Origin: a virus
Strand: one strand, 5' to 3'
Virus record (IMG/VR): IMGVR_UViG_3300030107_006824
Span: 6,255 to 70,254 of that record
Length of the DNA: 64,000 bases
The notes under the pieces were generated by a model. That model was not told where the DNA came from, did not search any database, and saw nothing but the letters and a program-made list of their open reading frames with translations. Of the stretch, positions 6,960-47,900 are shown one piece after another. A program made the position numbers and the translations under genes. Numbering within the stretch: position 1 is the stretch's first letter; the number at the start of each line of letters is the position of its first letter.

Positions 6960-7135
6960 CAGCAACTGTAAGTGGAGCCTTCCACATTCAAACCATAGTA
7001 AAGTCTGGCGTGAACATCATCAGTGAAACTGAAGGTGTATCACCCATGATTTTATGGTGTTTGATAAGGCAACAAGCTGACCGTGAACTTGATCTTATTA
7101 AACAAGATCTTGAATCGAAGTCTACATCTCTATGA
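6956..7135 (+). CDS. Small hypothetical protein (59 aa), weakly similar to the upstream ORF
   Basis: ATGA overlap; GVSPMILW resembles RVSGQLAW. Confidence 0.5.
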   Translation: MTATVSGAFHIQTIVKSGVNIISETEGVSPMILWCLIRQQADRELDLIKQDLESKSTSL

Positions 7136-7206
7136 ATTTATGCCAGCTTTCGCTGGCTCTATTCTTTATGTCCTTAGGGGCACTTGTACACCCTGTTTAA
7201 ATTCAA

Positions 7207-7875
7207 ATGACTGTAACAGAATCATCGTCCAGCATAACAGAAATTATTGATGAACTTACTCAAAGCAGTACTTTCGTTGATGCCATGATTGGAGTTGGAG
7301 TAGTTAAGGATAGTGAAGCTGTCTTTTTTGAATACATTGGCGAAAAAGATCATCGTGCCCTGGTTGATCCCAAATCAGGCAAGCCTGTTAAAGCATTCGG
7401 TAATGTATGGCTTACCGGCATTTCTGTAGCTGAAGACATTGGCAAGTTTAAATCAACTAAGTTAAACCTTTACTTGCGTACTGGTTTCGGTAAAACACTT
7501 CTTATCACCTCTGGGTTAAATACTATCTGGAGTCAATGCGTTCTTACTGGTCTAATGGGTCTACTAAATAACCAGTATCCATTGATTAATCCTATTAGTA
7601 TTGAAACATGGAAAGGCACTTCTGCAATGAAGCCTTGTTTTGCAGCTGTTAAAATTAACAATCAAAAATTTAGTGACAATGATATGTATGAGTGTCTGAA
7701 AGAAGCACGTGCTGAAAACAATCGAGCTAAAGTGATTGATATCTGCAGAGATGCTGTCGAAGTTATCAATAATTATATTACTGTAGATGACGTGCTAGCA
7801 GAAAGCCAATCCTCTGTAGAAGTTGAGGTGATTGATGAAAATACAAATCAGCTTCAAGAACAAGCAGACTTCTAG
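7207..7875 (+). CDS. Hypothetical protein with acidic C-terminal -DF tail, possibly replication-associated
   Basis: 222-aa ORF ending QEQADF. Confidence 0.6.
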   Translation: MTVTESSSSITEIIDELTQSSTFVDAMIGVGVVKDSEAVFFEYIGEKDHRALVDPKSGKPVKAFGNVWLTGISVAEDIGKFKSTKLNLYLRTGFGKTLLITSGLNTIWSQCVLTGLMGLLNNQYPLINPISIETWKGTSAMKPCFAAVKINNQKFSDNDMYECLKEARAENNRAKVIDICRDAVEVINNYITVDDVLAESQSSVEVEVIDENTNQLQEQADF

Positions 7876-12965: not shown

Positions 12966-13604
12966 ATGACACATACAGCTGAACTTGTCTGGATTACACC
13001 AGACGCAGAGAAGCTTGTCGGAAAAATTGCTAGGGTATCTAACCCAGCTAATGAAGATAATCCTGACTACGAAAAACTTCTACGATATTTAATCAAGCAC
13101 AAGCACTGGTCTCCATTTGAGATGGTTAGTATGTGTGTTGAGATTGAGACTACTAGAGCTATCTCACCTCAGATACTGAGGCATAGAAGCTTTAGCTTCC
13201 AAGAATTTTCACAACGATATGCAGTTGCTGCTGAAGTAGAACTTCCTACTTTACGTAGACAAGATACCACTAATAGACAAAATTCTATTGATGATTTAGA
13301 TCTTAGAGTAAAAGGTAATCTTGATGCAATGATAACCCATCATAATGCTATGTCTATGAATCTCTATAAACACTTACTTAAACAAGGAGTGGCTAAAGAG
13401 TGTGCTCGTGCAGTTCTACCTTTGAATACAAAGACTAGAATGTATATGTCCGGTACTATCAGAAGTTGGCTTCATTACTGCGATCTACGTGCTTGGCACG
13501 GCACTCAATGGGAGCACACAAAAATTGCGCTTCAAATAATGAATATACTAAAAGAACAAGTTCCAACAATATCCGCAGCAATGTGGCCTACTGAACATGT
13601 CTGA
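12966..13604 (+). CDS. thyX: Flavin-dependent thymidylate synthase
   Basis: HWSPFE, RHRSFSFQEFSQRY, ECARAVLP, Q-W-E-H. Confidence 0.97.
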   Translation: MTHTAELVWITPDAEKLVGKIARVSNPANEDNPDYEKLLRYLIKHKHWSPFEMVSMCVEIETTRAISPQILRHRSFSFQEFSQRYAVAAEVELPTLRRQDTTNRQNSIDDLDLRVKGNLDAMITHHNAMSMNLYKHLLKQGVAKECARAVLPLNTKTRMYMSGTIRSWLHYCDLRAWHGTQWEHTKIALQIMNILKEQVPTISAAMWPTEHV

Positions 13605-16270: not shown

Positions 16271-17033
16271 TATACCTTATCGTATTCAGACACCTTCAGG
16301 TTATCGTAAATATCTTTGTTCAGGCTTGTATCTACCATCAGTAACTACAGTACTATCTGCTACTGAAACTGAAAAGTCAAAAGCCGGTTTAAAAACATGG
16401 CAAGCTAATAATCCTGGTGCATTAGAAGAGGCAAGCGTTAGAGGATCTGCTATACATAAATGTTGCGAAAATCACATTAGAGGTCTTCCTATTGATTGTC
16501 CTGATGAATATCAGGGATTTTGGAACGGAATGCCCCAATACCTTGACTGGTTTGATACCATACATTGGTCAGAGCGACCACTAAGATCTGACTGGTATCA
16601 CTTACGTAGCGACGATAAGGAGGTTTCATTTGTATGGAGCACTGAACATAAATATGCAGGATGCCCTGATCTTATTGGAGAAATTGGTGGTGTAAAAGTT
16701 ATTGCCGACTTTAAAACCAGCAATGGTCCTTATATGAATAGATTTCCTGACAAAGGAGATCGTATGGGTTTTGGAGGATTTAGGAAGTATCAAAAATGCG
16801 CTCAACAAATGGCAGCTTATAGGTTGGCATTAGAGGAGCGTACAGGTTATAAATGTGATGTAGCATTAATCATTGTATCTACTGAAAATATCACTCAGGG
16901 TATTTTCATTGATAGTGATCAAATGGATTTATATGAATCACGTTTTCTAAAAAGAGTAAACCAATTCCACGAAACGGAAAAAACGAATGAAAATAAAGAT
17001 TGCAGTCCACAAAAATTGCAAAAACAAGACTAA
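16251..17033 (+). CDS. PD-(D/E)XK exonuclease (Cas4/MGME1-like)
   Basis: PSVTTVL, RGSAIH, AGCPD, ADFKTS, QMAAY. Confidence 0.88.
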   Translation: MMMMTSDIPYRIQTPSGYRKYLCSGLYLPSVTTVLSATETEKSKAGLKTWQANNPGALEEASVRGSAIHKCCENHIRGLPIDCPDEYQGFWNGMPQYLDWFDTIHWSERPLRSDWYHLRSDDKEVSFVWSTEHKYAGCPDLIGEIGGVKVIADFKTSNGPYMNRFPDKGDRMGFGGFRKYQKCAQQMAAYRLALEERTGYKCDVALIIVSTENITQGIFIDSDQMDLYESRFLKRVNQFHETEKTNENKDCSPQKLQKQD

Positions 17034-19206
17034 CCCACAAAAAGTTGCTAAAGGTTGGTCAAACATTGTTGAAGATTTAACGTGGCTAGAAGGATGGGTA
17101 AAGGCTGGCTATGGCTGGTGTGCTACCCATTTTTTAAATCGTCATCGTAAATCTGAAAACGCAAGCGGCAGCAACATTATTGTTGTTGATATTGATGGTG
17201 ATACAACGTTAACAAAGTTCTGGTCTACCACCACTGCTAAAAAATGGTGTGCTGGTACTTACACCTCGGCTAGTCATAGCGATGAAGAGCATAGGTTCAG
17301 AGCTTTATTTCCTCTTGAAATAGCACTAGATACTATCAGCCAACACAGAGGGGCATACTGGCTAATTGCTGATAGATTAGTTGCTGAATTAGGTCTTGAG
17401 ACACTTAAAGATAATTGCGGTCAGAAACCTGAACGACTTTGGTATGGCAACACTAATGCAGTATTTCAATGGAATAATGAAGCCTGTGTACCTTCATTTC
17501 TTCTAGAAGATATTGACTATGAAGAACCAGTCGAATTCAACAAAAGCGATATATCTGATCAAGATATTGAACGCTGTAAGTGGCTGCTACAGAACTTCCT
17601 ACGTCCTTCTGAAGACGGTGAGTATGAATCTATGTACGTACCTGTTATGGCTGCTTGTGCGGCTATAGGTACCGTTATGTTTGACTCGTGGGTCGAATGG
17701 GTATTAAAAGGTCATCACGGAGAAAAAGAAGATAACATTCGTCCGTATAAGTGGAAAGGTTTAGGTAACTATAGTGGCCCAGCTAAATTGTATTCTTTAG
17801 CTAAAAAGCAAGATATAAATTGGACTAGGAATTTACCCTCCAATCTTAGTTTTAGAGCTGCAGGAGCTGCTGTAGGTTACACAGAAGTTGATCCAATTGT
17901 TGACTTAGATTCTATACTAGATTCTAAACAACCTGATCAATCAGATCCAATACCAGAGCCTTTACCTGATGCTCAGCAAGTTAAACGTAAAGGTCGCCCT
18001 AAGCGTACAAATGATGATGCCGCTAAAGAACGTGAAAATGACGTTAAAAAAGTTAAGGAGATTTTAAGTGACCTCCGTAAGAACGAATTAACTGGCGCTA
18101 TTGAATATACAAGTCCAACTAATGAGACTATAAGTCTACAAGGTAACGACCTTGATATCATGACTACTAAGTTAGCTTGTGAACATGGAGTATTTATACC
18201 TGAACCCAGAATAAAATCAGCCATTCATTACGCCGCCAGTAAAAATACTTACTGTCCTATCAGGAAATACCTTGATACCTGTAGTGCTCATAGTAAACCT
18301 CATCCTGATTGGGAGAGAATTGGGCAAATATTCTTAGGTAATCGTCATCATATTGCAACTCTTGCAATGCAAAGAATGATGATCGGTGCTGTTGCCCGTG
18401 CATACAATCCAGGTTGCTCAATGTCTTGGCTTCCAATCTTAGTGGGAGCACAAGGTGTAGGTAAGTCTATGTTTAGTAGGTACTTAGTTCCCGATAAGCT
18501 TTTCAGTGAAATAACGATTCCACTGGAAACATTAATGAAAGAACAGTATCGTTTACATGTAGCGTGGTTACTTGAACTTCCTGAGATTGATAATTATTTC
18601 AATGCACGTAATATTGAGAACTTTAAAAATCTAGTAACTACTAGATGTGATGAAGTTCGCTTCCCCTATGCATCATTACCTACAAAATTGCATAGAAGGT
18701 TTGTTATGATTGGTACTACCAATAGGAATCAATTCCTTGTAGATAGTACAGGGAATCGTAGGTTTGTTCCTCTTGAAGTAGGTACAGGGTTTCAAGTTCC
18801 CTGGAATCGACTGTCTGAAGAACGAGATAGTATCTGGTCAGCAGCAGTCAAGGCCTACCGTAATGGAGATAGATATGAATTTGATAGCGGTGAAATTGCT
18901 GCTATTGCTGAGTACATTCAAGAGTTTGGTGATCCAGATCCTTGGATGGAAAAGATAGTTCAATATATCTCTCATAGAGTTGAAGTTACCGCAGCTGAAG
19001 TTTTAACAAGTGCTCTTGATATTGATCCTAAACAGCAAGGTCGTAGAGAGTCTAGACGTGTAGCAGATGTACTACAAACTATGGGTTGGCGTCGTTTAGT
19101 TACTAGCCGAAAGGATAAAACTACTGGACGACAAAAGAGTGTACGAATCTGGCAACGTCCTAAAGATGATCCCCTGCCTGAAAATCATATCTTAAATGAC
19201 TTCTAA
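16987..19206 (+). CDS. Primase-helicase: AEP-like N-domain, PriCT-2, VapE/VirE P-loop helicase
   Basis: VVDIDG and SASH...HRFR primase motifs; GAQGVGKS Walker A; GTTN...FLVDSTGNRRF. Confidence 0.9.
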   Translation: MKIKIAVHKNCKNKTNPQKVAKGWSNIVEDLTWLEGWVKAGYGWCATHFLNRHRKSENASGSNIIVVDIDGDTTLTKFWSTTTAKKWCAGTYTSASHSDEEHRFRALFPLEIALDTISQHRGAYWLIADRLVAELGLETLKDNCGQKPERLWYGNTNAVFQWNNEACVPSFLLEDIDYEEPVEFNKSDISDQDIERCKWLLQNFLRPSEDGEYESMYVPVMAACAAIGTVMFDSWVEWVLKGHHGEKEDNIRPYKWKGLGNYSGPAKLYSLAKKQDINWTRNLPSNLSFRAAGAAVGYTEVDPIVDLDSILDSKQPDQSDPIPEPLPDAQQVKRKGRPKRTNDDAAKERENDVKKVKEILSDLRKNELTGAIEYTSPTNETISLQGNDLDIMTTKLACEHGVFIPEPRIKSAIHYAASKNTYCPIRKYLDTCSAHSKPHPDWERIGQIFLGNRHHIATLAMQRMMIGAVARAYNPGCSMSWLPILVGAQGVGKSMFSRYLVPDKLFSEITIPLETLMKEQYRLHVAWLLELPEIDNYFNARNIENFKNLVTTRCDEVRFPYASLPTKLHRRFVMIGTTNRNQFLVDSTGNRRFVPLEVGTGFQVPWNRLSEERDSIWSAAVKAYRNGDRYEFDSGEIAAIAEYIQEFGDPDPWMEKIVQYISHRVEVTAAEVLTSALDIDPKQQGRRESRRVADVLQTMGWRRLVTSRKDKTTGRQKSVRIWQRPKDDPLPENHILNDF

Positions 19207-19361
19207 TGAATTTTACACCCAAACAATTAGATCTAATTATGTGGTGTGTAGAACAAGAAGCTTTATATTTCAATGATGATCAACTAACAGTAGCTGAAAG
19301 CATCTACGAAATGATAAGCACTTACCACAAGGATATGCGTAAACATTACAAAAAGAGCTAA
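19206..19361 (+). CDS. Small hypothetical protein (51 aa)
   Basis: TAATG-coupled; manual translation MNFTPKQLDLIMWCVE... Confidence 0.5.
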   Translation: MNFTPKQLDLIMWCVEQEALYFNDDQLTVAESIYEMISTYHKDMRKHYKKS

Positions 19362-19366
19362 AAATT

Positions 19367-19603
19367 ATGCTTACTAAAGACATTAAAATTGGGTTACGTG
19401 TTAAAGTCTTAACAAATAATATGACTGCATTAGTAGTGGGTGAGCCCGAATACTACACACCCAAAGCCAAACTAGTTCGGTTAAAGTACGAGAATAGTAC
19501 ACGATTTGAGTATATGATTAATAATCAAATCGAACCTTTATCATTAAATCAACAGTATCCAGCTCATGGCGGTACTTACGTTAAACCTGAATCCTCTTTC
19601 TAA
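19367..19603 (+). CDS. Small SH3/KOW-like beta-barrel protein
   Basis: DIKIGLRVKV...ALVVG pattern. Confidence 0.55.
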   Translation: MLTKDIKIGLRVKVLTNNMTALVVGEPEYYTPKAKLVRLKYENSTRFEYMINNQIEPLSLNQQYPAHGGTYVKPESSF

Positions 19604-19605
19604 TT

Positions 19606-19755
19606 ATGGAATACAAAGTCACTATGTACATTAAAGCTGTAACTCATCCACGAAAGTGGTTAGTTGAAGGTGTTAATGACATGCTCAATGAAGATGAAAG
19701 TGAGGATATCCTTGAATGGGAAATTGAGCCTATGGAGTATATTGACAATGGCTGA
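19606..19755 (+). CDS. Small hypothetical protein (49 aa)
   Basis: Manual translation MEYKVTMYIKAVTHPRKW... Confidence 0.5.
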   Translation: MEYKVTMYIKAVTHPRKWLVEGVNDMLNEDESEDILEWEIEPMEYIDNG

Positions 19756-20551
19756 AGCACAACCTGTTAATAAAGGCCATGCTTATGGCCGAAGACAGAA
19801 ACAAATTTCTAATACAGCTGAAGAAGGTGAACTTTGTCTTTATATAGGTCATTCTATTGGCAGGTTCTCTTGTCATTCCATGAGATATGACAGCCATCAA
19901 GCCTGTACTAGATGTGTTGCAGCTGCAAGAGAAGGTAGAATGTCACTCAATATTGACACTCTATTAAAACGTAATCGCATTAAAGCTCTTAAGTTCTGGA
20001 GTCAAGTTGATATCGGCTCACCAGATGAATGTTGGCCATGGAATGGATGTATTAATAAACGTACAAAACAACCTCAGTTTGCTTGGAGACGGCATGGCAT
20101 ATCCTCCTCAACACAGCATCATCCCCAAAGAGTGGCTATGTGGTTTAGTTGGGGTGATCTTGGTTTTGCTGGTGTTAAAACCACATGTGGCAATAAGTAT
20201 TGCTGTAATCCCTTCCATCTTATTCCTCAGCATCTTGGTGTATTTGTTGATCAGGAAAGTTATACCGACAATTTTGAAATGGCTTGTCAACTTCATACAT
20301 TAAAACAACAAGTATCAGAATATGTATTAGAGCAAGCATTATTAGAACAGGAGAAAGAGGAGGAATCTAATTTAGATCTACTTCCTGAAAACTATGAAGA
20401 ATTACTAATGAATCCAGATTCTCCTTTTGCTAAAAAATTTGAAGCAGTTATTGCTGAAATGTTAACTGGCAATCACGCTACTCAGATAACTTCTAAGGAC
20501 ACTTCATTATCTAATAAACCGATTGATAATTCTGAAGAAGAATCAGATTAA
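19748..20551 (+). CDS. HNH (His-Cys box) endonuclease homolog lacking the catalytic His
   Basis: FWSQVD...DECWPWNG, QRVAM, VKTTCGNKYCCNPFHL versus the usual VxHxCxNxxCVNPxHL. Confidence 0.7.
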   Translation: MAEAQPVNKGHAYGRRQKQISNTAEEGELCLYIGHSIGRFSCHSMRYDSHQACTRCVAAAREGRMSLNIDTLLKRNRIKALKFWSQVDIGSPDECWPWNGCINKRTKQPQFAWRRHGISSSTQHHPQRVAMWFSWGDLGFAGVKTTCGNKYCCNPFHLIPQHLGVFVDQESYTDNFEMACQLHTLKQQVSEYVLEQALLEQEKEEESNLDLLPENYEELLMNPDSPFAKKFEAVIAEMLTGNHATQITSKDTSLSNKPIDNSEEESD

Positions 20552-20615
20552 TCTTCACGTTAAAGCTCACATTTATAATAAATAACACTTATCCTTGTAA
20601 AAGAGTCATTCTATT

Positions 20616-21038
20616 ATGTCTAGACGTACTGATTTAATTCAACAACTTATTAGATCTAATAAATTTGGTGAAGAAAAAGAAAATGAGCAGAAGTTTTTAA
20701 CTGCAACTGCTGAATTAATTCTCACTGATTTAATTAATATAGCTATAAAGGGTGTCGAAAAAAATGGTGCTGGTTCACTTGTAATTAATCTCCAAGCCGG
20801 ATCTTCTGTTTTTATGTCAGGAAACGATATTCAAAAAGATCTAGCTACTGCAGAAACTCTAGAAGATACTGATACTATTAAATTTCTAAGACAGCTAATC
20901 AATGAAGTCGATCAGAATGACTGGTCTAAAAATGTACTAATTACATTATTATCTGAAAATGGAACAAAAACATTTGCAGTCGAAGCTGGTGGGAGCCAAG
21001 AGAGCCTCCGAACGCTTGCAGCAGAATTTACAGGATAA
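20616..21038 (+). CDS. Hypothetical protein
   Basis: 140-aa ORF. Confidence 0.65.
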   Translation: MSRRTDLIQQLIRSNKFGEEKENEQKFLTATAELILTDLINIAIKGVEKNGAGSLVINLQAGSSVFMSGNDIQKDLATAETLEDTDTIKFLRQLINEVDQNDWSKNVLITLLSENGTKTFAVEAGGSQESLRTLAAEFTG

Positions 21039-21624
21039 GTTAGAAGCGCAGGGTCTCAAATTACCCTTGTATCCAACCCCTCAAATCATTGAACGTGCTC
21101 GTCAAGTCATGGGATCTATTGACTTTGATCCCACTTCTGACCCTGTTCAACAAGTTCTTGTAGACGCAACAACGGTACCTTCAATAGAAATCAATCCACT
21201 ACAAGAACATTGGAAAGGAAATGTATTTGTTTCACCTAAAGGTGCAGTCAGGAATACTCGTATATGGTTAAATAAAACTATTAATGAATACCGTAATGGT
21301 TATGTAAAAAGCTTTATATTCTTTACAAGTGCTTCTGAGATACTTCGCGCATCGCCTGTTTTATGGGATTATCCTATTTGTATCCCCTTTAAACGAGTAA
21401 AGCAGCTAAGAGCTACTAAGAATGGATTTGAATCAGTATCTCCCTCGACTTGGAATTGTATTGCTTATGGTCCTCCATTAGATGTCACACTTAATAATGT
21501 AGATCGTATTGCACTTTTCTATAACAATTTTAGGGATATTGGAAGAGTAATTTACAATGAATATGCTGGAGATAGCTGGTCAAAGGATTTGACATTCTTT
21601 GAAGAGCAAAAAGGTAACGTTTAA
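20959..21624 (+). CDS. Phage Dam-like N6-adenine MTase homolog with degenerate catalytic motif
   Basis: YPTPQIIERARQVMGSIDFDPTS...WKGNVFVSPKG; SPKG sits where NPPY is expected. Confidence 0.7.
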   Translation: MEQKHLQSKLVGAKRASERLQQNLQDKLEAQGLKLPLYPTPQIIERARQVMGSIDFDPTSDPVQQVLVDATTVPSIEINPLQEHWKGNVFVSPKGAVRNTRIWLNKTINEYRNGYVKSFIFFTSASEILRASPVLWDYPICIPFKRVKQLRATKNGFESVSPSTWNCIAYGPPLDVTLNNVDRIALFYNNFRDIGRVIYNEYAGDSWSKDLTFFEEQKGNV

Positions 21625-22037
21625 TGTATAAAAACATATCAAAGGAATGTCTGATTACATTGCCTTCAGGTCAAGCAGTTCATCCGTGTAGGCTGATTTG
21701 CAGAGATGGCACTTTGATGTGGAAAAACGCTTTATTGCATGATAATGAATTTCTTGCTTTACCTCAATCAATGTCAGATGAATCTCATATCATCAAAACT
21801 GCACAACGATTGGAAGAACTTAATTCTTGGGCTTCCATTAATATGGAACCTTGGGAGTCTTTATTCCCTATTTATTGGTATGATCCCAATAATAAAGAAA
21901 TGAAACACGGTATAAGTGTATATTTTATACATCGTATATTGCCAATCAAAGAAACATTTAATAAGCTCATTGACCATATTCAAGAACATGAAGTTCTTGA
22001 ACTTAAACAAAGCTATATCTTTTTCAAACGTTGTTGA
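21624..22037 (+). CDS. Degenerate peptidase M15-like protein
   Basis: TLMW...P...HIIKTAQRLEEL...WYDP...HGISVYF aligns by eye to NFTW...NIIxLAxxLE...WYRP...HxxGxAVDF without the Zn ligands. Confidence 0.5.
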   Translation: MYKNISKECLITLPSGQAVHPCRLICRDGTLMWKNALLHDNEFLALPQSMSDESHIIKTAQRLEELNSWASINMEPWESLFPIYWYDPNNKEMKHGISVYFIHRILPIKETFNKLIDHIQEHEVLELKQSYIFFKRC

Positions 22038-22041
22038 TTCC

Positions 22042-22057
22042 GCCACCTTTCGGTGGC
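22042..22057. terminator. Hairpin between convergent genes (copy 4 of the repeated hairpin)
   Basis: GCCACC-TTTC-GGTGGC, identical to 2693-2708. Confidence 0.6.
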
Positions 22058-22061
22058 TTAC

Positions 22062-22388
22062 CTATTCAGTGATCTTATCGATCAACCTCCTTAGGTACCA
22101 TTCAGCTTTTTTGGCATCTTGTTCAATATTATCTTTATGCCAAAGCCTAAGAATATATTTTAATACTTGTCCTTGCAGAAAACCTAGTGTAGAATCAGGT
22201 GAATCCTTTATTGCATCCTCGATTACATCAATAGCTTCATACTTGCCTGATGTATAGTGTGCTGGGTTATTAACCAGATCCAATTCTACACAACCCTCGT
22301 CTGACCTATGTAATTTTAATTTTGCATCATATACCGATTCCGCTTCTTTCTTGTAGCGGTTTTTTTCCCATTCAGTTTCCCAATGCAT
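22062..22388 (-). CDS. DUF3310 (SaV-like) protein
   Basis: VNNPAHY..G..EAIDVI...GQVLKY..R..HK...QDAKKAEWYL. Confidence 0.9.
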   Translation of the reverse strand: MHWETEWEKNRYKKEAESVYDAKLKLHRSDEGCVELDLVNNPAHYTSGKYEAIDVIEDAIKDSPDSTLGFLQGQVLKYILRLWHKDNIEQDAKKAEWYLRRLIDKITE

Positions 22389-22450
22389 ATCTACTCACAA
22401 TAAACTATTTACCTACCTAATATAGGAATAAATGTATGATAATGTGACTT

Positions 22451-23014
22451 ATGCCATCTCCTAAAGGCGATCCAACTTATATAAAAAACAAAGATAGATT
22501 CTATCTTGAAATATGTAAACTATTAGCAAAAGCTTCCACTCACCCGATGGCTCCTGGTGGTTGTGTTATTGTACGCGATCGTGAAATTATAGGAGATGGT
22601 CGAAGTCTTTTAGCTAGCTGCAAAGTTGAATTAGATTGCATTTCATATGCAATTGCTACAGCCGCTAAACGTGGTACACCTCTTGTTGGAGCTATTTTAT
22701 ACAGTACTAGATACCCATTTTCTACTGCTGTTTTTCAATGTTATCTCATGGGCATTAGAAAAATAGTAATACTTGCTCATGACTGGGAGCCTTTTTATAA
22801 AGATGAATTTAGACGTGCTGCACGTTTAGCACGAGAACTTGCCATTTCGATTGAACCATATCATGAAGATGAAGACAAACGTTTTACAGTTAACAAACAA
22901 CCGGAGAAGAACGATGAACCGGAGGCATGGATCACTTGTAACTCATTTGAACAAGACGAATTTGATCCCGAATCTGCAGAAACAATCTATGATGAAGACT
23001 CAACTAATTTTTGA
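22451..23014 (+). CDS. dCMP-deaminase-fold protein lacking Zn ligands
   Basis: GCVIVRD..IIGDG scaffold; HAE replaced by DCI and PCxxC by PFSTA. Confidence 0.7.
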   Translation: MPSPKGDPTYIKNKDRFYLEICKLLAKASTHPMAPGGCVIVRDREIIGDGRSLLASCKVELDCISYAIATAAKRGTPLVGAILYSTRYPFSTAVFQCYLMGIRKIVILAHDWEPFYKDEFRRAARLARELAISIEPYHEDEDKRFTVNKQPEKNDEPEAWITCNSFEQDEFDPESAETIYDEDSTNF

Positions 23015-23534
23015 CTTAGAAAGTACAGGGCTATTACGGCAGGGCTCTTCAATACATTGTATTGTTTTGCGTAATTTAAATAATGCAGAGTCCCCTGTTA
23101 TATTCGATCATCAACCAGATCGAGATCTTAATATAGCTATTCAACAATTACAATCAGCTGACTTACTTATTGGCCACAATATTATAGGGTTTGACATTCC
23201 GTTAATTAAAGAGCAATTCCCTGATTTCAATTTTCAAGGTGAACTCTTAGATACTCTTGTCTTAAGTAGAACTCTTTATCCTAATATCATTAATCGAGAT
23301 TATGAAATTAGACCTAAGGATATGCCTCAAAGACTTTACGGGCGTCATAGCCTAGAAGCTTGGGGGTATCGTCTTAAATGCTTCAAAGGTGATTTTGGTA
23401 AGCACGAAGGAGCTTGGGATACTTATACGCCAGAAATGCTTGATTATTGTATTGGAGATACACAAGTAACACTTAAACTTTATGAACGCCTGATGAGAAA
23501 AATTAATGAGCACGATGCCCAAATTCACGCCTGA
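22989..23534 (+). CDS. Stand-alone 3'-5' proofreading exonuclease (T7 gp5 N-domain-like)
   Basis: FDLEST, IGHNIIGFD, HSLEAWGYRL, YCIGD. Confidence 0.92.
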   Translation: MMKTQLIFDLESTGLLRQGSSIHCIVLRNLNNAESPVIFDHQPDRDLNIAIQQLQSADLLIGHNIIGFDIPLIKEQFPDFNFQGELLDTLVLSRTLYPNIINRDYEIRPKDMPQRLYGRHSLEAWGYRLKCFKGDFGKHEGAWDTYTPEMLDYCIGDTQVTLKLYERLMRKINEHDAQIHA

Positions 23535-23652
23535 ATTCATTGCTTGGTTAGATCAATGTCCTTGTAATTGGATGTGGCTCCAACATGAAGAATATAATTG
23601 TACCTATAAGTTCTACTTCAAAAATGAGGAAACTGATGACAACGATTCCTGA
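23506..23652 (+). CDS. Small hypothetical protein (48 aa) between the exonuclease and polymerase genes
   Basis: Manual translation MSTMPKFTPEFIAWLDQCPCNW...; overlaps both neighbours. Confidence 0.55.
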   Translation: MSTMPKFTPEFIAWLDQCPCNWMWLQHEEYNCTYKFYFKNEETDDNDS

Positions 23653-24961
23653 TTATGTACATCTTGAAATGCGAATGGCTGAACTTATGTCTCAGCAAGA
23701 AGCTTCCGGCTTTAAATTCGATTTACAAGCCGCTGAACGTGTAAGAAGTGAACTCGCTATAGAGGCTAAAAGTATTGAAGAAAAAATTGCTACTCAATAT
23801 TTATATGTTCCTGGTAAAGTCTTTACGCCTAAACGTAACGACAAAAAGAATGGGTATGTGAGCGGATCACCAATGACAAAGCTTATCCCTTTCAATCCAA
23901 CTTCACGTCAGCATATAGCTTGGGCATTGCAGACTTTTAGAGGTGCCCGATTCACTAAGCAGACCGATACTGGTAAACCCAAAGTCGATGAAGCTACCTT
24001 ATCTGAAGTAAGAGATGTAGCATTAACTCAAGACAATAAAGAATTGTATGAAGAATGTGAAATGTTTATTCGCTTGTTAACTCTACAGAAATGGATGGGT
24101 CAACTAAGTGAAGGCACTAACTCCTGGTTTAATACAATCGGACACGATGGCTGTATTCATCACACCTGCTCACTAGCCACACAAACAGGGCGTAACGCTC
24201 ACCGTAACCCCAACCTGGGGCAGGTCGTAAGTGCTCCTTGGGCAAGAGAATTATTTATTCCTCACTCTGGACATGTAATGGTTGGTAGTGATTTAGAAGG
24301 GATAGAATTGAGATGCTTAGGGCATTATTTGTCGGCCTGGGATGATGGCAATTTCGCTAACGTTGTGGTCAATGGTGACATACACCAGCAGAATGCTGAT
24401 CGTATTACTTCTTCTGAATTTCCTGTTACAAGATCGCAAGCCAAGGTTCTTTCATATGCATTTATTTATGGTGCTGGTGATCTCAAACTTGGCCACAGTT
24501 TGGCACCAGAACTATCTGATGCACGTAAAAAGTCTCTCGGAAAAGAGATAAGAAGGAAGTTTCTTGATGCTATTCCTGGACTTGAACCTTTGATTGATGC
24601 TGTTAAACAAAAGGTGCGTGATAAGGGTCAGCTACTTGGTCTAGATCGAAGGCCTATACAATGTGACGCAGAGCATAAAAGTTTGAACTTCTTACTCCAA
24701 AGTGCTGGGGCAATAATTTCAAAGCGATTTGTAGTCATTGGGCAAGAGCTAATTGATGAAGCTGGTTTGACATATAATAGTGATTACACTCGATGTGCTT
24801 ACGTACATGATGAAGTTCAATTATCTGTAGTACCTTCAGAAGCAAAACGTGTCAGTGACTTATTAGTTAAAGCTGCACCCTTAGCTGGACAGTATTACAA
24901 GTTCAGAGTTCCCATCACAGCTAGTGCATCAGTTGGAAATAACTGGGCAGAAACCCATTAA
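23636..24961 (+). CDS. polA: DNA polymerase family A, polymerase domain only (Tyr762 type)
   Basis: DLEGIELR (motif A), RSQAKVLSYAFIYG (motif B), YVHDE (motif C), FNPTSRQHI; GAGGA RBS before 23636. Confidence 0.95.
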   Translation: MTTIPDYVHLEMRMAELMSQQEASGFKFDLQAAERVRSELAIEAKSIEEKIATQYLYVPGKVFTPKRNDKKNGYVSGSPMTKLIPFNPTSRQHIAWALQTFRGARFTKQTDTGKPKVDEATLSEVRDVALTQDNKELYEECEMFIRLLTLQKWMGQLSEGTNSWFNTIGHDGCIHHTCSLATQTGRNAHRNPNLGQVVSAPWARELFIPHSGHVMVGSDLEGIELRCLGHYLSAWDDGNFANVVVNGDIHQQNADRITSSEFPVTRSQAKVLSYAFIYGAGDLKLGHSLAPELSDARKKSLGKEIRRKFLDAIPGLEPLIDAVKQKVRDKGQLLGLDRRPIQCDAEHKSLNFLLQSAGAIISKRFVVIGQELIDEAGLTYNSDYTRCAYVHDEVQLSVVPSEAKRVSDLLVKAAPLAGQYYKFRVPITASASVGNNWAETH

Positions 24962-24965
24962 TATT

Positions 24966-25163
24966 ATGAACGAAAAAGAAGTCCAAGCTTTGATAGATGC
25001 AGCCATTACAAGACATAATCGCAATGCCAGCCTTATTAGCTTCGTGCTTGGCTGGATCATTCTCGCGTTATTTATGGATGGTTTATTCAGACTACTTGGA
25101 CTTATTCCACCCTTCATGGGAATTGATATAAACCTCTTACCTAAAATCGCAGAACTACTATGA
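24966..25163 (+). CDS. Small membrane protein of a cyanobacterial/cyanophage family
   Basis: IDAAITRHNRNA followed by a TM segment. Confidence 0.65.
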   Translation: MNEKEVQALIDAAITRHNRNASLISFVLGWIILALFMDGLFRLLGLIPPFMGIDINLLPKIAELL

Positions 25164-47534: not shown

Positions 47535-47900
47535 ATGGAAAAGTTTATTGATACAAGTGAGTGGGTTCCTATTCATACTATCCCTGGTTTTGAATGCTGT
47601 ATTGAATATTACATCAGTAAAGAAGGTGAAGTTAAGAGTACGAAAGGGAACACTGAACGATTACTTAAGTATAAATTCCACAAAGCTGGATACCCCATGG
47701 TTACACTGACGCAACGTATTGGCAGACGTAAACCTATATACGTCTGTGTCCATAAACTTGTTGCACTAGCCTTTCTACCTTCTCCTACAACACCATATGG
47801 AACTAATAAAGGGTCTACAATTATTGAGCATATAGACAATGATAATTCTAATTGTCATTGGACAAATCTTCGATGGGCTAAGCGAGTCAAAATGACGTAG
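47535..47900 (+). CDS. NUMOD4-HNH homing endonuclease-like protein
   Basis: EWVPI...Y.IS..GEVKS, VHKLVALAF, HID....N....NLRW. Confidence 0.85.
   Translation: MEKFIDTSEWVPIHTIPGFECCIEYYISKEGEVKSTKGNTERLLKYKFHKAGYPMVTLTQRIGRRKPIYVCVHKLVALAFLPSPTTPYGTNKGSTIIEHIDNDNSNCHWTNLRWAKRVKMT

Follow-up and report, generated by a model that had tools for sequence, protein, structure and literature searches.

We examined a 64,000-nucleotide stretch (bases 6255 to 70254, hereafter the window) of the 70,254-bp IMG/VR virus record IMGVR_UViG_3300030107_006824, whose completeness is estimated at 89%. In its replication region, between a primase-helicase gene and the genes of a split DNA polymerase (PolA), lie four intact plus-strand open reading frames (ORFs). 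They encode an HNH-like, a Dam-like, an M15-like, and a deaminase-like protein, each related to a family of enzymes and each lacking canonical residues of that family. An earlier reading of the DNA by a model (the original prediction) had announced four such ORFs, and they are present at these places. The Dam-like gene overlaps the M15-like gene and a gene for a 140-residue protein, o140, and we call these three genes the trio; the HNH-like gene ends the string of genes that includes the helicase. A minus-strand DUF3310 gene, whose position and strand are the same in all 52 loci that could be compared, separates the trio from the deaminase-like gene. Elsewhere, the genome encodes psbA, ribonucleotide reductase, a sigma factor, a large terminase, and the flavin-dependent thymidylate synthase ThyX. 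The sole cultured match of its portal-size structural protein in the phage collection is Synechococcus phage S-EIVl (48% identity), and its split PolA is 42 to 45% identical to the PolA of T7-like cyanophages, which makes the phage a marine relative of the S-EIV1 lineage. By its gene content and these matches, then, the source is a cyanophage of about 70 kb that carries psbA. A nucleotide search of the phage collection with positions 19000 to 25000 of the window gave no match.

Residues 74 to 160 of the HNH-like protein match HNH endonuclease families of PHROGs (E values of 1.7e-8 to 5.5e-5), and tblastn reaches annotated HNH endonucleases, of which three of the four scanned match PF13392, two of them above the cut-off. 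Pfam finds no nuclease family in the protein or in any of 59 orthologs. When the protein is aligned with HNH_3 phage endonucleases, VKTTCGNKYCCNPFHL of the window falls on VRHTCDNxxCxNPxHL, with the general-base His replaced by Thr. In the 59 non-identical orthologs, this column is always Thr (45) or Ser (14) and never His; the S-EIVl protein has Arg. The LGTxxDN of the enzymes (the metal-binding Asn/His helix) is absent, its place in the clade of the window (hereafter the window clade) being taken by IPQx[IV]GVFVD in an alignment that is of low certainty past NPxHL. Four residues that may bind a structural zinc (C95, C147, C152, and H157) are invariant in the 59 orthologs, as are N154 and P155. 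This agrees with the original prediction of an HNH protein without catalytic His that kept its zinc cysteines. Compared with HNH_3 and other His-Me endonucleases (PF13392, PF05551), the protein thus retains the core homology and the putative zinc Cys/His residues but has neither the general-base His nor LGTxxDN.

The AlphaFold2 (AF2) model of the HNH-like protein has a mean predicted local distance difference test score (pLDDT) of 59.7 overall and of about 70 to 89 over residues 70 to 160. Its best fold matches are weak: the MH1 domain of Smad4 (Z score 5.2, root mean square deviation [rmsd] 3.2 A over 82 residues), the DNA-binding domain of NFIC (Z 4.9), and I-PpoI (Z 3.7). MH1 domains also occupy the top Foldseek ranks, below significance. 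A PDB search with the single sequence gave no match, and the ortholog profile found nothing relevant in PDB, only a plant NRC2a coiled coil on the C-terminal helix (E 0.002). The SMAD MH1 and NFI domains, the best fold matches of the model, are inactive His-Me fingers derived from I-PpoI-like homing endonucleases. The HNH-like protein has in common with them the beta-beta-alpha-metal scaffold, a structural zinc site (putative in our protein), and the lack of a catalytic His. It differs from them in being nearest in sequence to phage HNH_3 endonucleases and in having an additional Cys/His motif at the N terminus, a long C-terminal helix, and an acidic tail. SMAD MH1 is described in the literature (PMC5714182) as a His-Me finger that lost catalysis and kept DNA binding. 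The HNH-like protein is probably a DNA-binding protein as well. Elsewhere in the window, a partial HNH_3 match at about 47817 to 47885 (G000:C1:54071-54139) reaches 23.2 bits, below the cut-off, and may be an ordinary HNH endonuclease.

The Dam-like protein has no match in Pfam or PHROGs, and the Pfam model PF05869 itself misses it. Its relatives are found by other means. With tblastn it is linked to phage methyltransferases at 26 to 35% identity, two of the three scanned being members of PF05869, and 25 of its 30 matches by ESM features are PF05869 clusters (score 0.95). PDB searches with the single sequence and with the ortholog profile gave no match. The protein shares with the PF05869 phage Dam proteins (T1-type N6-adenine methyltransferases) about 160 homologous residues, including DxDP[AT]S, W-G-N/R-V, and C-[IL]-P-x-x-R. 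It differs from them in motif IV, where NPPY has become [SA]PKG: in a four-sequence alignment, the SPKG of the window sits under the NPPY, NHPF, and NPPC of phage methyltransferases. Among the 59 orthologs, the four positions of this motif hold Ser (15) or Ala (44), Pro (56), Lys (59), and Gly (59), and none of the orthologs has [ND]PP followed by an aromatic residue. DxDP[AT]S is kept in the orthologs, and DxDPTS, which we assume to be the S-adenosylmethionine (SAM) site, is invariant in the clade. The original prediction of SPKG in place of NPPY, with DFDPTS kept, is therefore confirmed and holds for the whole clade.

The profile of the 59 orthologs, run against 1.84 billion representative proteins, retrieved 3110 proteins at an E value of 0.001 or less. 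We took a census of motif IV in 130 aligned proteins of at least 140 residues from the best 150 of these 3110 matches. The motif is [ND]PP[YFWH] in 54, [ND]PPG in 46, and another pattern with N or D in 5; 22 proteins have no N or D, and 3 do not cover the column. The sequences without N or D are the window clade and its nearest relatives; the Dam-like proteins belong to a subfamily with a degenerate motif IV. This subfamily also differs from other PF05869 proteins in that it always has an o140-like gene before it and a gene with the M15 fold after it. METTL14 and MTA9 are non-catalytic partners of methyltransferases and may be functional analogs of the Dam-like protein.

The o140 protein matches nothing in Pfam or PHROGs and has no usable match in the ESM Atlas; its gene is followed directly by the Dam-like gene throughout the window clade. 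The two genes overlap out of frame by 80 nt (20959 to 21038), with both frames highly conserved at the protein level, and the overlap codes for the C terminus of o140 (FAVEAGGSQESLR) and for the N-terminal 26 residues of the Dam-like protein. In S-EIVl, the Dam-like protein has no N-terminal extension and the corresponding overlap is 1 nt, and one database record places the Dam-like start at residue 11. We considered whether a 90-residue N-terminal extension in one homolog (P0024) could be a fusion with o140; hhalign rules this out (probability 0.08%).

Sequence searches with the M15-like protein (o137) in Pfam, in PHROGs, in PDB with the single sequence, and in phage records with tblastn gave no match. 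Its AF2 model is of high confidence (pLDDT 93.8; predicted template modeling score 0.88). In a search of about 48,000 PDB representatives that is independent of Foldseek, the zinc DD-peptidase of S. albus (1lbu) ranks first with a Z score of 10.2 (rmsd 2.1 A, 100 residues aligned), and LAS or Hedgehog entries make up 14 of the first 31 rows. Ply500 matches at Z 4.7, and 27 entries of the Hedgehog N-domain match at Z 6.5 to 7.2. Foldseek against PDB alone gives no match at an E value of 0.001 or less for this model or for that of the HNH-like protein. Among viral models, the top BFVD match is "Peptidase M15A, C-terminal" (Foldseek probability 1.00, template modeling score 0.66, rmsd 2.9 A), and others include an M15A protein of Microcystis phage LMM01 and microvirus peptidases. 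The fold is thus shared with M15/LAS peptidases (1lbu, VanX/VanY, phage M15 endolysins) and with Hedgehog N-domains. The M15-like protein differs from the peptidases in having no sequence-level match to them and no conserved H-x(3-6)-D...H, and from their phage members in that its gene lies in the replication region and not in lysis or virion modules.

The apparent loss of the metal ligands needs a more careful statement. The two phage groups in which we found the M15-like family (see below) have no H-x(3-6)-D...H pattern in common. Eighteen columns are at least 90% conserved in 40 distant homologs (FPRDWWPILAPFWWDPWG), and they include no His and no Cys; in an eight-sequence alignment across clades, the invariant columns include no His, and R23 and D28 are the only polar ones. 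The canonical ligand positions fall near residues 90 to 100 and 133 to 134, an approximate placement interpolated linearly from the aligned ranges and from ligand residue numbers, and no conserved His or Asp is found there. The original prediction was of an M15-like protein without the H-x6-D...H ligands. The fold stands, and the ligands are probably missing from the canonical positions, but H20, D28, H55, and H118 are invariant in the window clade, so that "no ligands" would apply to the canonical positions only. None of these His is retained by homologs of the second phage group.

The deaminase-like protein is the one for which Pfam gives a signal. PF00383 aligns to residues 13 to 107 with 24.3 bits, for a cut-off of 25 (25.6 bits in a six-frame search), and matches 39 of 40 orthologs at an E value of 0.01 or less, the best at 2.6e-7. 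Against PDB, the ortholog profile finds RibD (E 1.1e-5) and three dCMP deaminases (E 1.8e-4); tblastn against phage records gave no match. There are two possible registers for the HAE motif. The alignment with RibD places K/M/Q-V-E there, with E60 in 40 of 40 orthologs and no His, and the alignment with the closer phage deaminases places D-C-I. The second is favored because one ortholog has a His at the D column; D-C-[IVL] is found in 39 of 40 and HAE in none. The PCxxC positions read P-F-S-x-[SA], with Phe at the first Cys in 38 of 40, Cys at the second in 2 of 40, and CxxC in none. The zinc-ligand His and both Cys are therefore gone in either register, and the deaminase fold with DCI and PFSTA that was originally predicted is borne out. 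The protein resembles the zinc-dependent cytidine deaminases and dCMP deaminases (PF00383; RibD, T4, S. mutans) in its profile homology across the cytidine deaminase core, and RibD also in a close N-terminal thP-x-x-GcViV segment. It differs from them by the replacement of His, Glu, Cys, and Cys by Asp, Ile/Val/Leu, Phe, and Ser/Ala, and by an added acidic tail of about 45 residues. Its gene is the sole deaminase-fold gene of the genome and is translationally coupled to that of the PolA exonuclease subunit; the genome has ThyX and no ThyA, no dcd homolog, and no second PF00383 match. JGI names several orthologs (P0156, P0181, P0190, and others) "deoxycytidylate deaminase" despite the absent zinc ligands. 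As a statement of activity, this label is probably wrong, judging from the substituted residues, and such mis-annotation would make phage dCMP deaminases seem more numerous in marine viromes than they are.

The median ratio of nonsynonymous to synonymous substitution rates (dN/dS; pairwise Nei-Gojobori, only pairs with dS of 0.05 to 1) is 0.031 for the HNH-like, 0.016 for the Dam-like, 0.081 for the M15-like, and 0.089 for the deaminase-like gene, compared with 0.18 for o140 and 0.12 for o78, a small gene upstream. All four are under strong purifying selection. Their amino acid identity is as high as that of the helicase and PolA, and their ORFs are intact in about 100 loci. In a tblastn search of the 107 loci that we fetched, each of the four proteins was found in 92 to 106 loci; the loci were fetched via the Dam-like and deaminase-like genes, and hence the absence of those two cannot show. 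All 52 loci with matches to both helicase and PolA (50 contigs) share one gene order: helicase, o78, HNH-like, o140, Dam-like, M15-like, DUF3310 (minus strand), deaminase-like, and PolA. Public data hold 659 clusters of the deaminase-like and 903 of the M15-like protein at 90% identity, and the 120 that we examined of each all belong to the window clade.

The layout of the locus is given in Table 1. The primase-helicase, which ends in ILNDF, is the upstream boundary of the region, and three small plus-strand ORFs lie between it and the HNH-like gene. One of these is o78, the KOW-like protein of the original prediction, which matches nothing in Pfam or PHROGs; a small ORF named o49 overlaps the HNH-like gene by 8 nt. 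The Dam-like gene overlaps the M15-like gene by 1 nt and o140 by the 80 nt described above, and the deaminase-like gene overlaps that of the PolA exonuclease subunit by 26 nt. The M15-like and DUF3310 genes converge on a gap of 24 nt that holds a perfect hairpin; lacking a T run, this hairpin was not called as a terminator. The scan for promoters and terminators gave no useful signal, with 22 promoter-like sites for 32.9 expected, and we therefore claim no transcription units beyond what gene overlaps and gaps indicate.

Table 1. Features of the replication region and related genes, in positions of the window.
Feature	Position	Strand	Basis
ThyX (flavin-dependent thymidylate synthase)	12966..13604	+	PF02511, E 6.5e-49; G000:C1:19238-19822
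Primase-helicase (VirE/D5-type P-loop)	16987..19206	+	tblastn to APSE P3 / VirE-family helicases, 27% identity, E 1e-24
o78, conserved small protein, 78 aa	19367..19603	+	at least 80% coverage in 74 loci; dN/dS 0.12
HNH-like (HNH_3-like His-Me finger) protein, 267 aa	19748..20551	+	PHROG HNH families, HNH_3 alignment
o140, 140-aa protein without known family, first trio gene	20616..21038	+	upstream of Dam-like gene
Dam-like (PF05869-related) protein, 221 aa	20959..21624	+	ortholog profile, tblastn, ESM features
M15-like (M15/LAS fold) protein o137, 137 aa, last trio gene	21624..22037	+	AF2 model
Hairpin GCCACC-TTTC-GGTGGC	22042..22057		read from sequence
DUF3310 protein (PHROG "nucleotide kinase")	22062..22388	-	PF11753, E 8.2e-17; phrog_236, E 8.2e-26
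Deaminase-like (cytidine/dCMP-deaminase fold) protein, 187 aa	22451..23014	+	PF00383, ortholog profile against PDB
PolA 3'-5' exonuclease subunit (split polymerase)	22989..23534	+	ORF, ATGATG start; same split annotated in cyanopodovirus records
PolA polymerase subunit	23585..24961	+	42-45% identity to T7-like cyanophage PolA

Taken as a whole, the original prediction fared well in the window clade. The reading frames are intact and several genes are coupled, as it had said. Searches by profile, language model, and structure point to the families that it named, the substitutions are fixed in the clade with a constant gene order and low dN/dS, and nothing that it had listed as speaking against it was found there. 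Its idea of a single module of pseudoenzymes holds only in part. The pseudoenzymes are well supported for this clade, but they are not one unit: the deaminase-like gene is a separate unit behind the minus-strand DUF3310 gene and is coupled to PolA. A survey of the open literature on bacteriophage pseudoenzymes, on the S-EIV1 cyanophage, and on PF05869, at the level of paper listings, turned up no account of these genes; the S-EIV1 genome paper may list the ORFs.

How far back does this association go? The cultured phage S-EIVl has an adjacent pair of o140-like and Dam-like genes (hhalign probabilities of 93.8% and 97.3%), with the motif FPPN, followed by a dCTP deaminase; the M15-like and deaminase-like profiles match nothing in its genome. 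Its HNH-like ortholog adjoins the primase gene and is partly unannotated. This ORF (L108 2854-3552; KJ410740.1, about 7027-7725, reverse) extends upstream of the coding sequence (CDS) AHV82135.1; over its N-terminal part, the record has two small "hypothetical" CDS on the opposite strand, probably an annotation error.

The closest Dam-like representatives with a degenerate motif (P0019 and others) led to a second, deeply diverged group of phages. It comprises five contigs binned into metagenome-assembled genomes (MAGs) and 44 viral contigs of 9 to 94 kb (L121-L164). Neighboring genes include ThyX, a PF18909 protein at the DUF3310 position, a MazG-like pyrophosphatase, an ordinary HNH endonuclease, and an endolysin; the contigs are those of phages. 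An o140-like gene is present in 43 of the 44 loci, in 38 directly upstream of the Dam-like gene; an M15-like gene is found with a mixed profile in 43, in 37 directly downstream, and the one locus without it breaks off there. Upstream, 36 of the 44 loci have an HNH-like gene. That the overlapping trio and the HNH-like gene recur in a second deep phage group is new here. None of the 44 Dam-like proteins has [ND]PP followed by an aromatic residue. The loop varies (APTG, VPSG, CPSG, PPVG, and others), with only P-x-G in common, as expected if it would no longer do chemistry. As far as alignments can tell, the degenerate Dam motif and the M15 fold without ligands are found together wherever the trio is found. 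Two other findings point in the opposite direction. The general-base His is kept in 10 of the 36 HNH-like proteins of the second group, and 22 of its 44 loci have a deaminase homolog, upstream of the HNH-like gene, that keeps HAE, CxxC (TCSQC), and the acidic tail. Catalytic loss is therefore clade-specific for these two: in the aligned sequences, the HNH-like gene travels with the trio, and the loss of its His is confined to some lineages, with 59 of 59 orthologs here among them, and the deaminase-like protein is a pseudoenzyme only in the window clade. We also observed, just downstream of the trio in one contig (L117 5776-6948), a 390-aa gene of the tryptophan halogenase family (PF04820, E 7.9e-29), and in another (L118 5817-6989) an ORF of the same length and position; both are phage-like contigs binned into marine archaeal MAGs.

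The C termini of several of these proteins may say something about their function. Among the orthologs of the deaminase-like protein, 34 of 40 end in Leu, Ile, Phe, or Val, with a net charge of -8 over the last 30 residues. Phe or Tyr is the last residue, after an acidic stretch, in 37 of 60 HNH-like orthologs, and 43 of 54 orthologs of o78 end in Phe. In the window, the helicase (DF), the protein at the position of the single-stranded DNA-binding protein (SSB; DF), and o78 end in Phe after acidic residues. The acidic C-terminal tails of T7 gp2.5 (SSB) and gp4 (helicase) dock on T7 DNA polymerase. An acidic stretch with an aromatic or hydrophobic end is likewise found on the deaminase-like, HNH-like, o78, helicase, and SSB-position proteins, and the PolA of the window is T7-like. 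By this analogy, the tails could be replisome docking signals. Most deaminase-like orthologs end in Leu or Ile and not in Phe. More broadly, six plus-strand proteins of the replication region end in Phe (ORF ends 7875, 14447, 15899, 19206, 19603, and 23014; tails ADF, PDF, TEF, NDF, SSF, and TNF), and the residue just before it is acidic or polar in five of the six.

What could such proteins do? Folds, missing residues, conservation, and gene linkage are all direct observations. With somewhat more confidence than doubt, we suggest that the four proteins are pseudoenzymes that were kept for a non-catalytic job at the center of replication and nucleotide metabolism. The HNH-like protein would be a zinc-stabilized His-Me finger that binds DNA without cutting it, like SMAD MH1 and NFI, and would probably act as a sequence-specific replication or transcription factor. 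The o140, Dam-like, and M15-like proteins would be co-produced from overlapping genes and may act together, with the Dam-like fold as a DNA- or cofactor-binding subunit unable to methylate adenine N6. The deaminase-like protein would be co-translated with the exonuclease subunit of PolA and could dock on the replisome by its acidic tail in the manner of T7 gp2.5 and gp4 and serve as a scaffold or nucleotide-binding accessory instead of a deaminase. Each element has a known precedent taken singly: a His-Me finger that is inactive, subunits of methyltransferases and deaminases that do not catalyze, and a LAS domain that acts in signaling.

This suggestion should be taken with caution, since a number of observations weigh against it. 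Missing canonical residues are not proof of missing catalysis, and we infer the binding role for all four proteins. For the HNH-like protein, the confidence of the model is low (pLDDT 59.7) and the fold matches are weak (Z of 5.2 at most); the catalytic residues retained by HNH-like and deaminase homologs of the second group also count here. The Dam-like subfamily could conceivably carry out another reaction, given that it retains DxDP, PICIPFxR, and an invariant Glu (SASE), and 46 of the 130 aligned representatives have NPPG, a loop that might be active or inactive. In the M15-like protein, H20, D28, H55, H118, and E123 are invariant within the clade and H103 and H122 nearly so, and such residues could form a clade-specific metal site. 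The phage has ThyX and no detectable active dCMP or dCTP deaminase, and deaminase activity would therefore be useful to it. Finally, neighbors such as ThyX, DUF3310/PF18909, MazG, and ribonucleotide reductase fit an enzymatic pathway as well as a scaffold.

These points lead to the alternative that some or all of the proteins are still enzymes, with non-canonical active sites. The trio, for example, could be a three-protein pathway of DNA or nucleotide modification, with a SAM-dependent transfer that is not N6-methylation and then an amide-bond step, alongside ThyX, the kinase-like DUF3310 protein, and MazG. We regard this as unlikely, and yet as the most serious of the competing explanations. 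The co-inheritance of overlapping genes in two deep phage lineages, in the neighborhood of nucleotide enzymes, speaks for such a pathway, and so do the very strong purifying selection on the Dam-like gene (dN/dS 0.016), its subfamily-specific invariant polar residues, and the clade-invariant His, Asp, and Glu of the M15-like protein. Against this, the two lineages share no more than P-x-G in the loop that stands in for NPPY, the M15-like protein has no conserved constellation of His, Cys, Asp, or Glu across lineages (R23 and D28 being its only polar invariants), and no modification pathway is known to use the trio, none having turned up in paper listings on PF05869 or bacteriophage pseudoenzymes.

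The proteins could also be decoys or inhibitors that pair with, or mimic, host enzymes of like fold, such as methylases or restriction enzymes, deaminases, and nucleases. Deaminase-fold enzymes act as oligomers, and pseudoenzymes that partner with active paralogs are known (METTL14, ADAT3). Neither the Dam-like nor the deaminase-like protein has an active paralog in the phage genome, and hence a like-with-like partner would be host-encoded. Counter-defense genes are usually variable accessory genes, whereas these belong to a core string of replication genes with a fixed order and very slow evolution, and the deaminase-like gene is translationally coupled to a polymerase gene; we consider the decoy hypothesis improbable. 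There is hardly any room left for chance similarities or for functionless remnants in decay, for instance of a homing endonuclease or a methylase. The silence of Pfam for three of the four proteins and the lack of a Foldseek match in PDB at an E value of 0.001 or less for either model could be read that way. Yet profile, language-model, and structure searches agree, the ORFs are intact in about 100 loci with dN/dS of 0.02 to 0.19, and the proteins form hundreds of clusters at 90% identity. Decaying remnants of a homing endonuclease or methylase in particular are ruled out by the dN/dS values and the intact frames.

Pseudoenzymes with a binding role are our preferred explanation. There is also a bolder idea, which we put forward tentatively and consider unlikely. 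The trio and the His-less HNH-like protein could be an ancient dedicated machine, present in two or more deep lineages of aquatic phages of 70 to 95 kb: either a non-catalytic DNA-recognition complex of ex-enzymes or a pathway whose chemistry is foreign to the parent families. Such a complex might be, for example, a "reader" of origins or of methylation state by which the supply of nucleotides is coupled to the replisome.

In abundant and essentially uncultured ocean cyanophages related to S-EIVl, the genes described here belong to the core and are conserved at the level of the polymerase, and databases label them "hypothetical" or, misleadingly, "deoxycytidylate deaminase." The co-inherited trio is a testable handle on three families without known function, and the cultured S-EIVl carries two of the three trio genes together with the HNH-like gene. 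If ex-enzymes do serve these phages as parts that bind DNA or belong to the replisome, the locus would be a compact natural example of the recycling of folds by phages. It would also call for caution in inferring auxiliary metabolism, such as methylation or dUMP supply, from annotation at the level of the fold.

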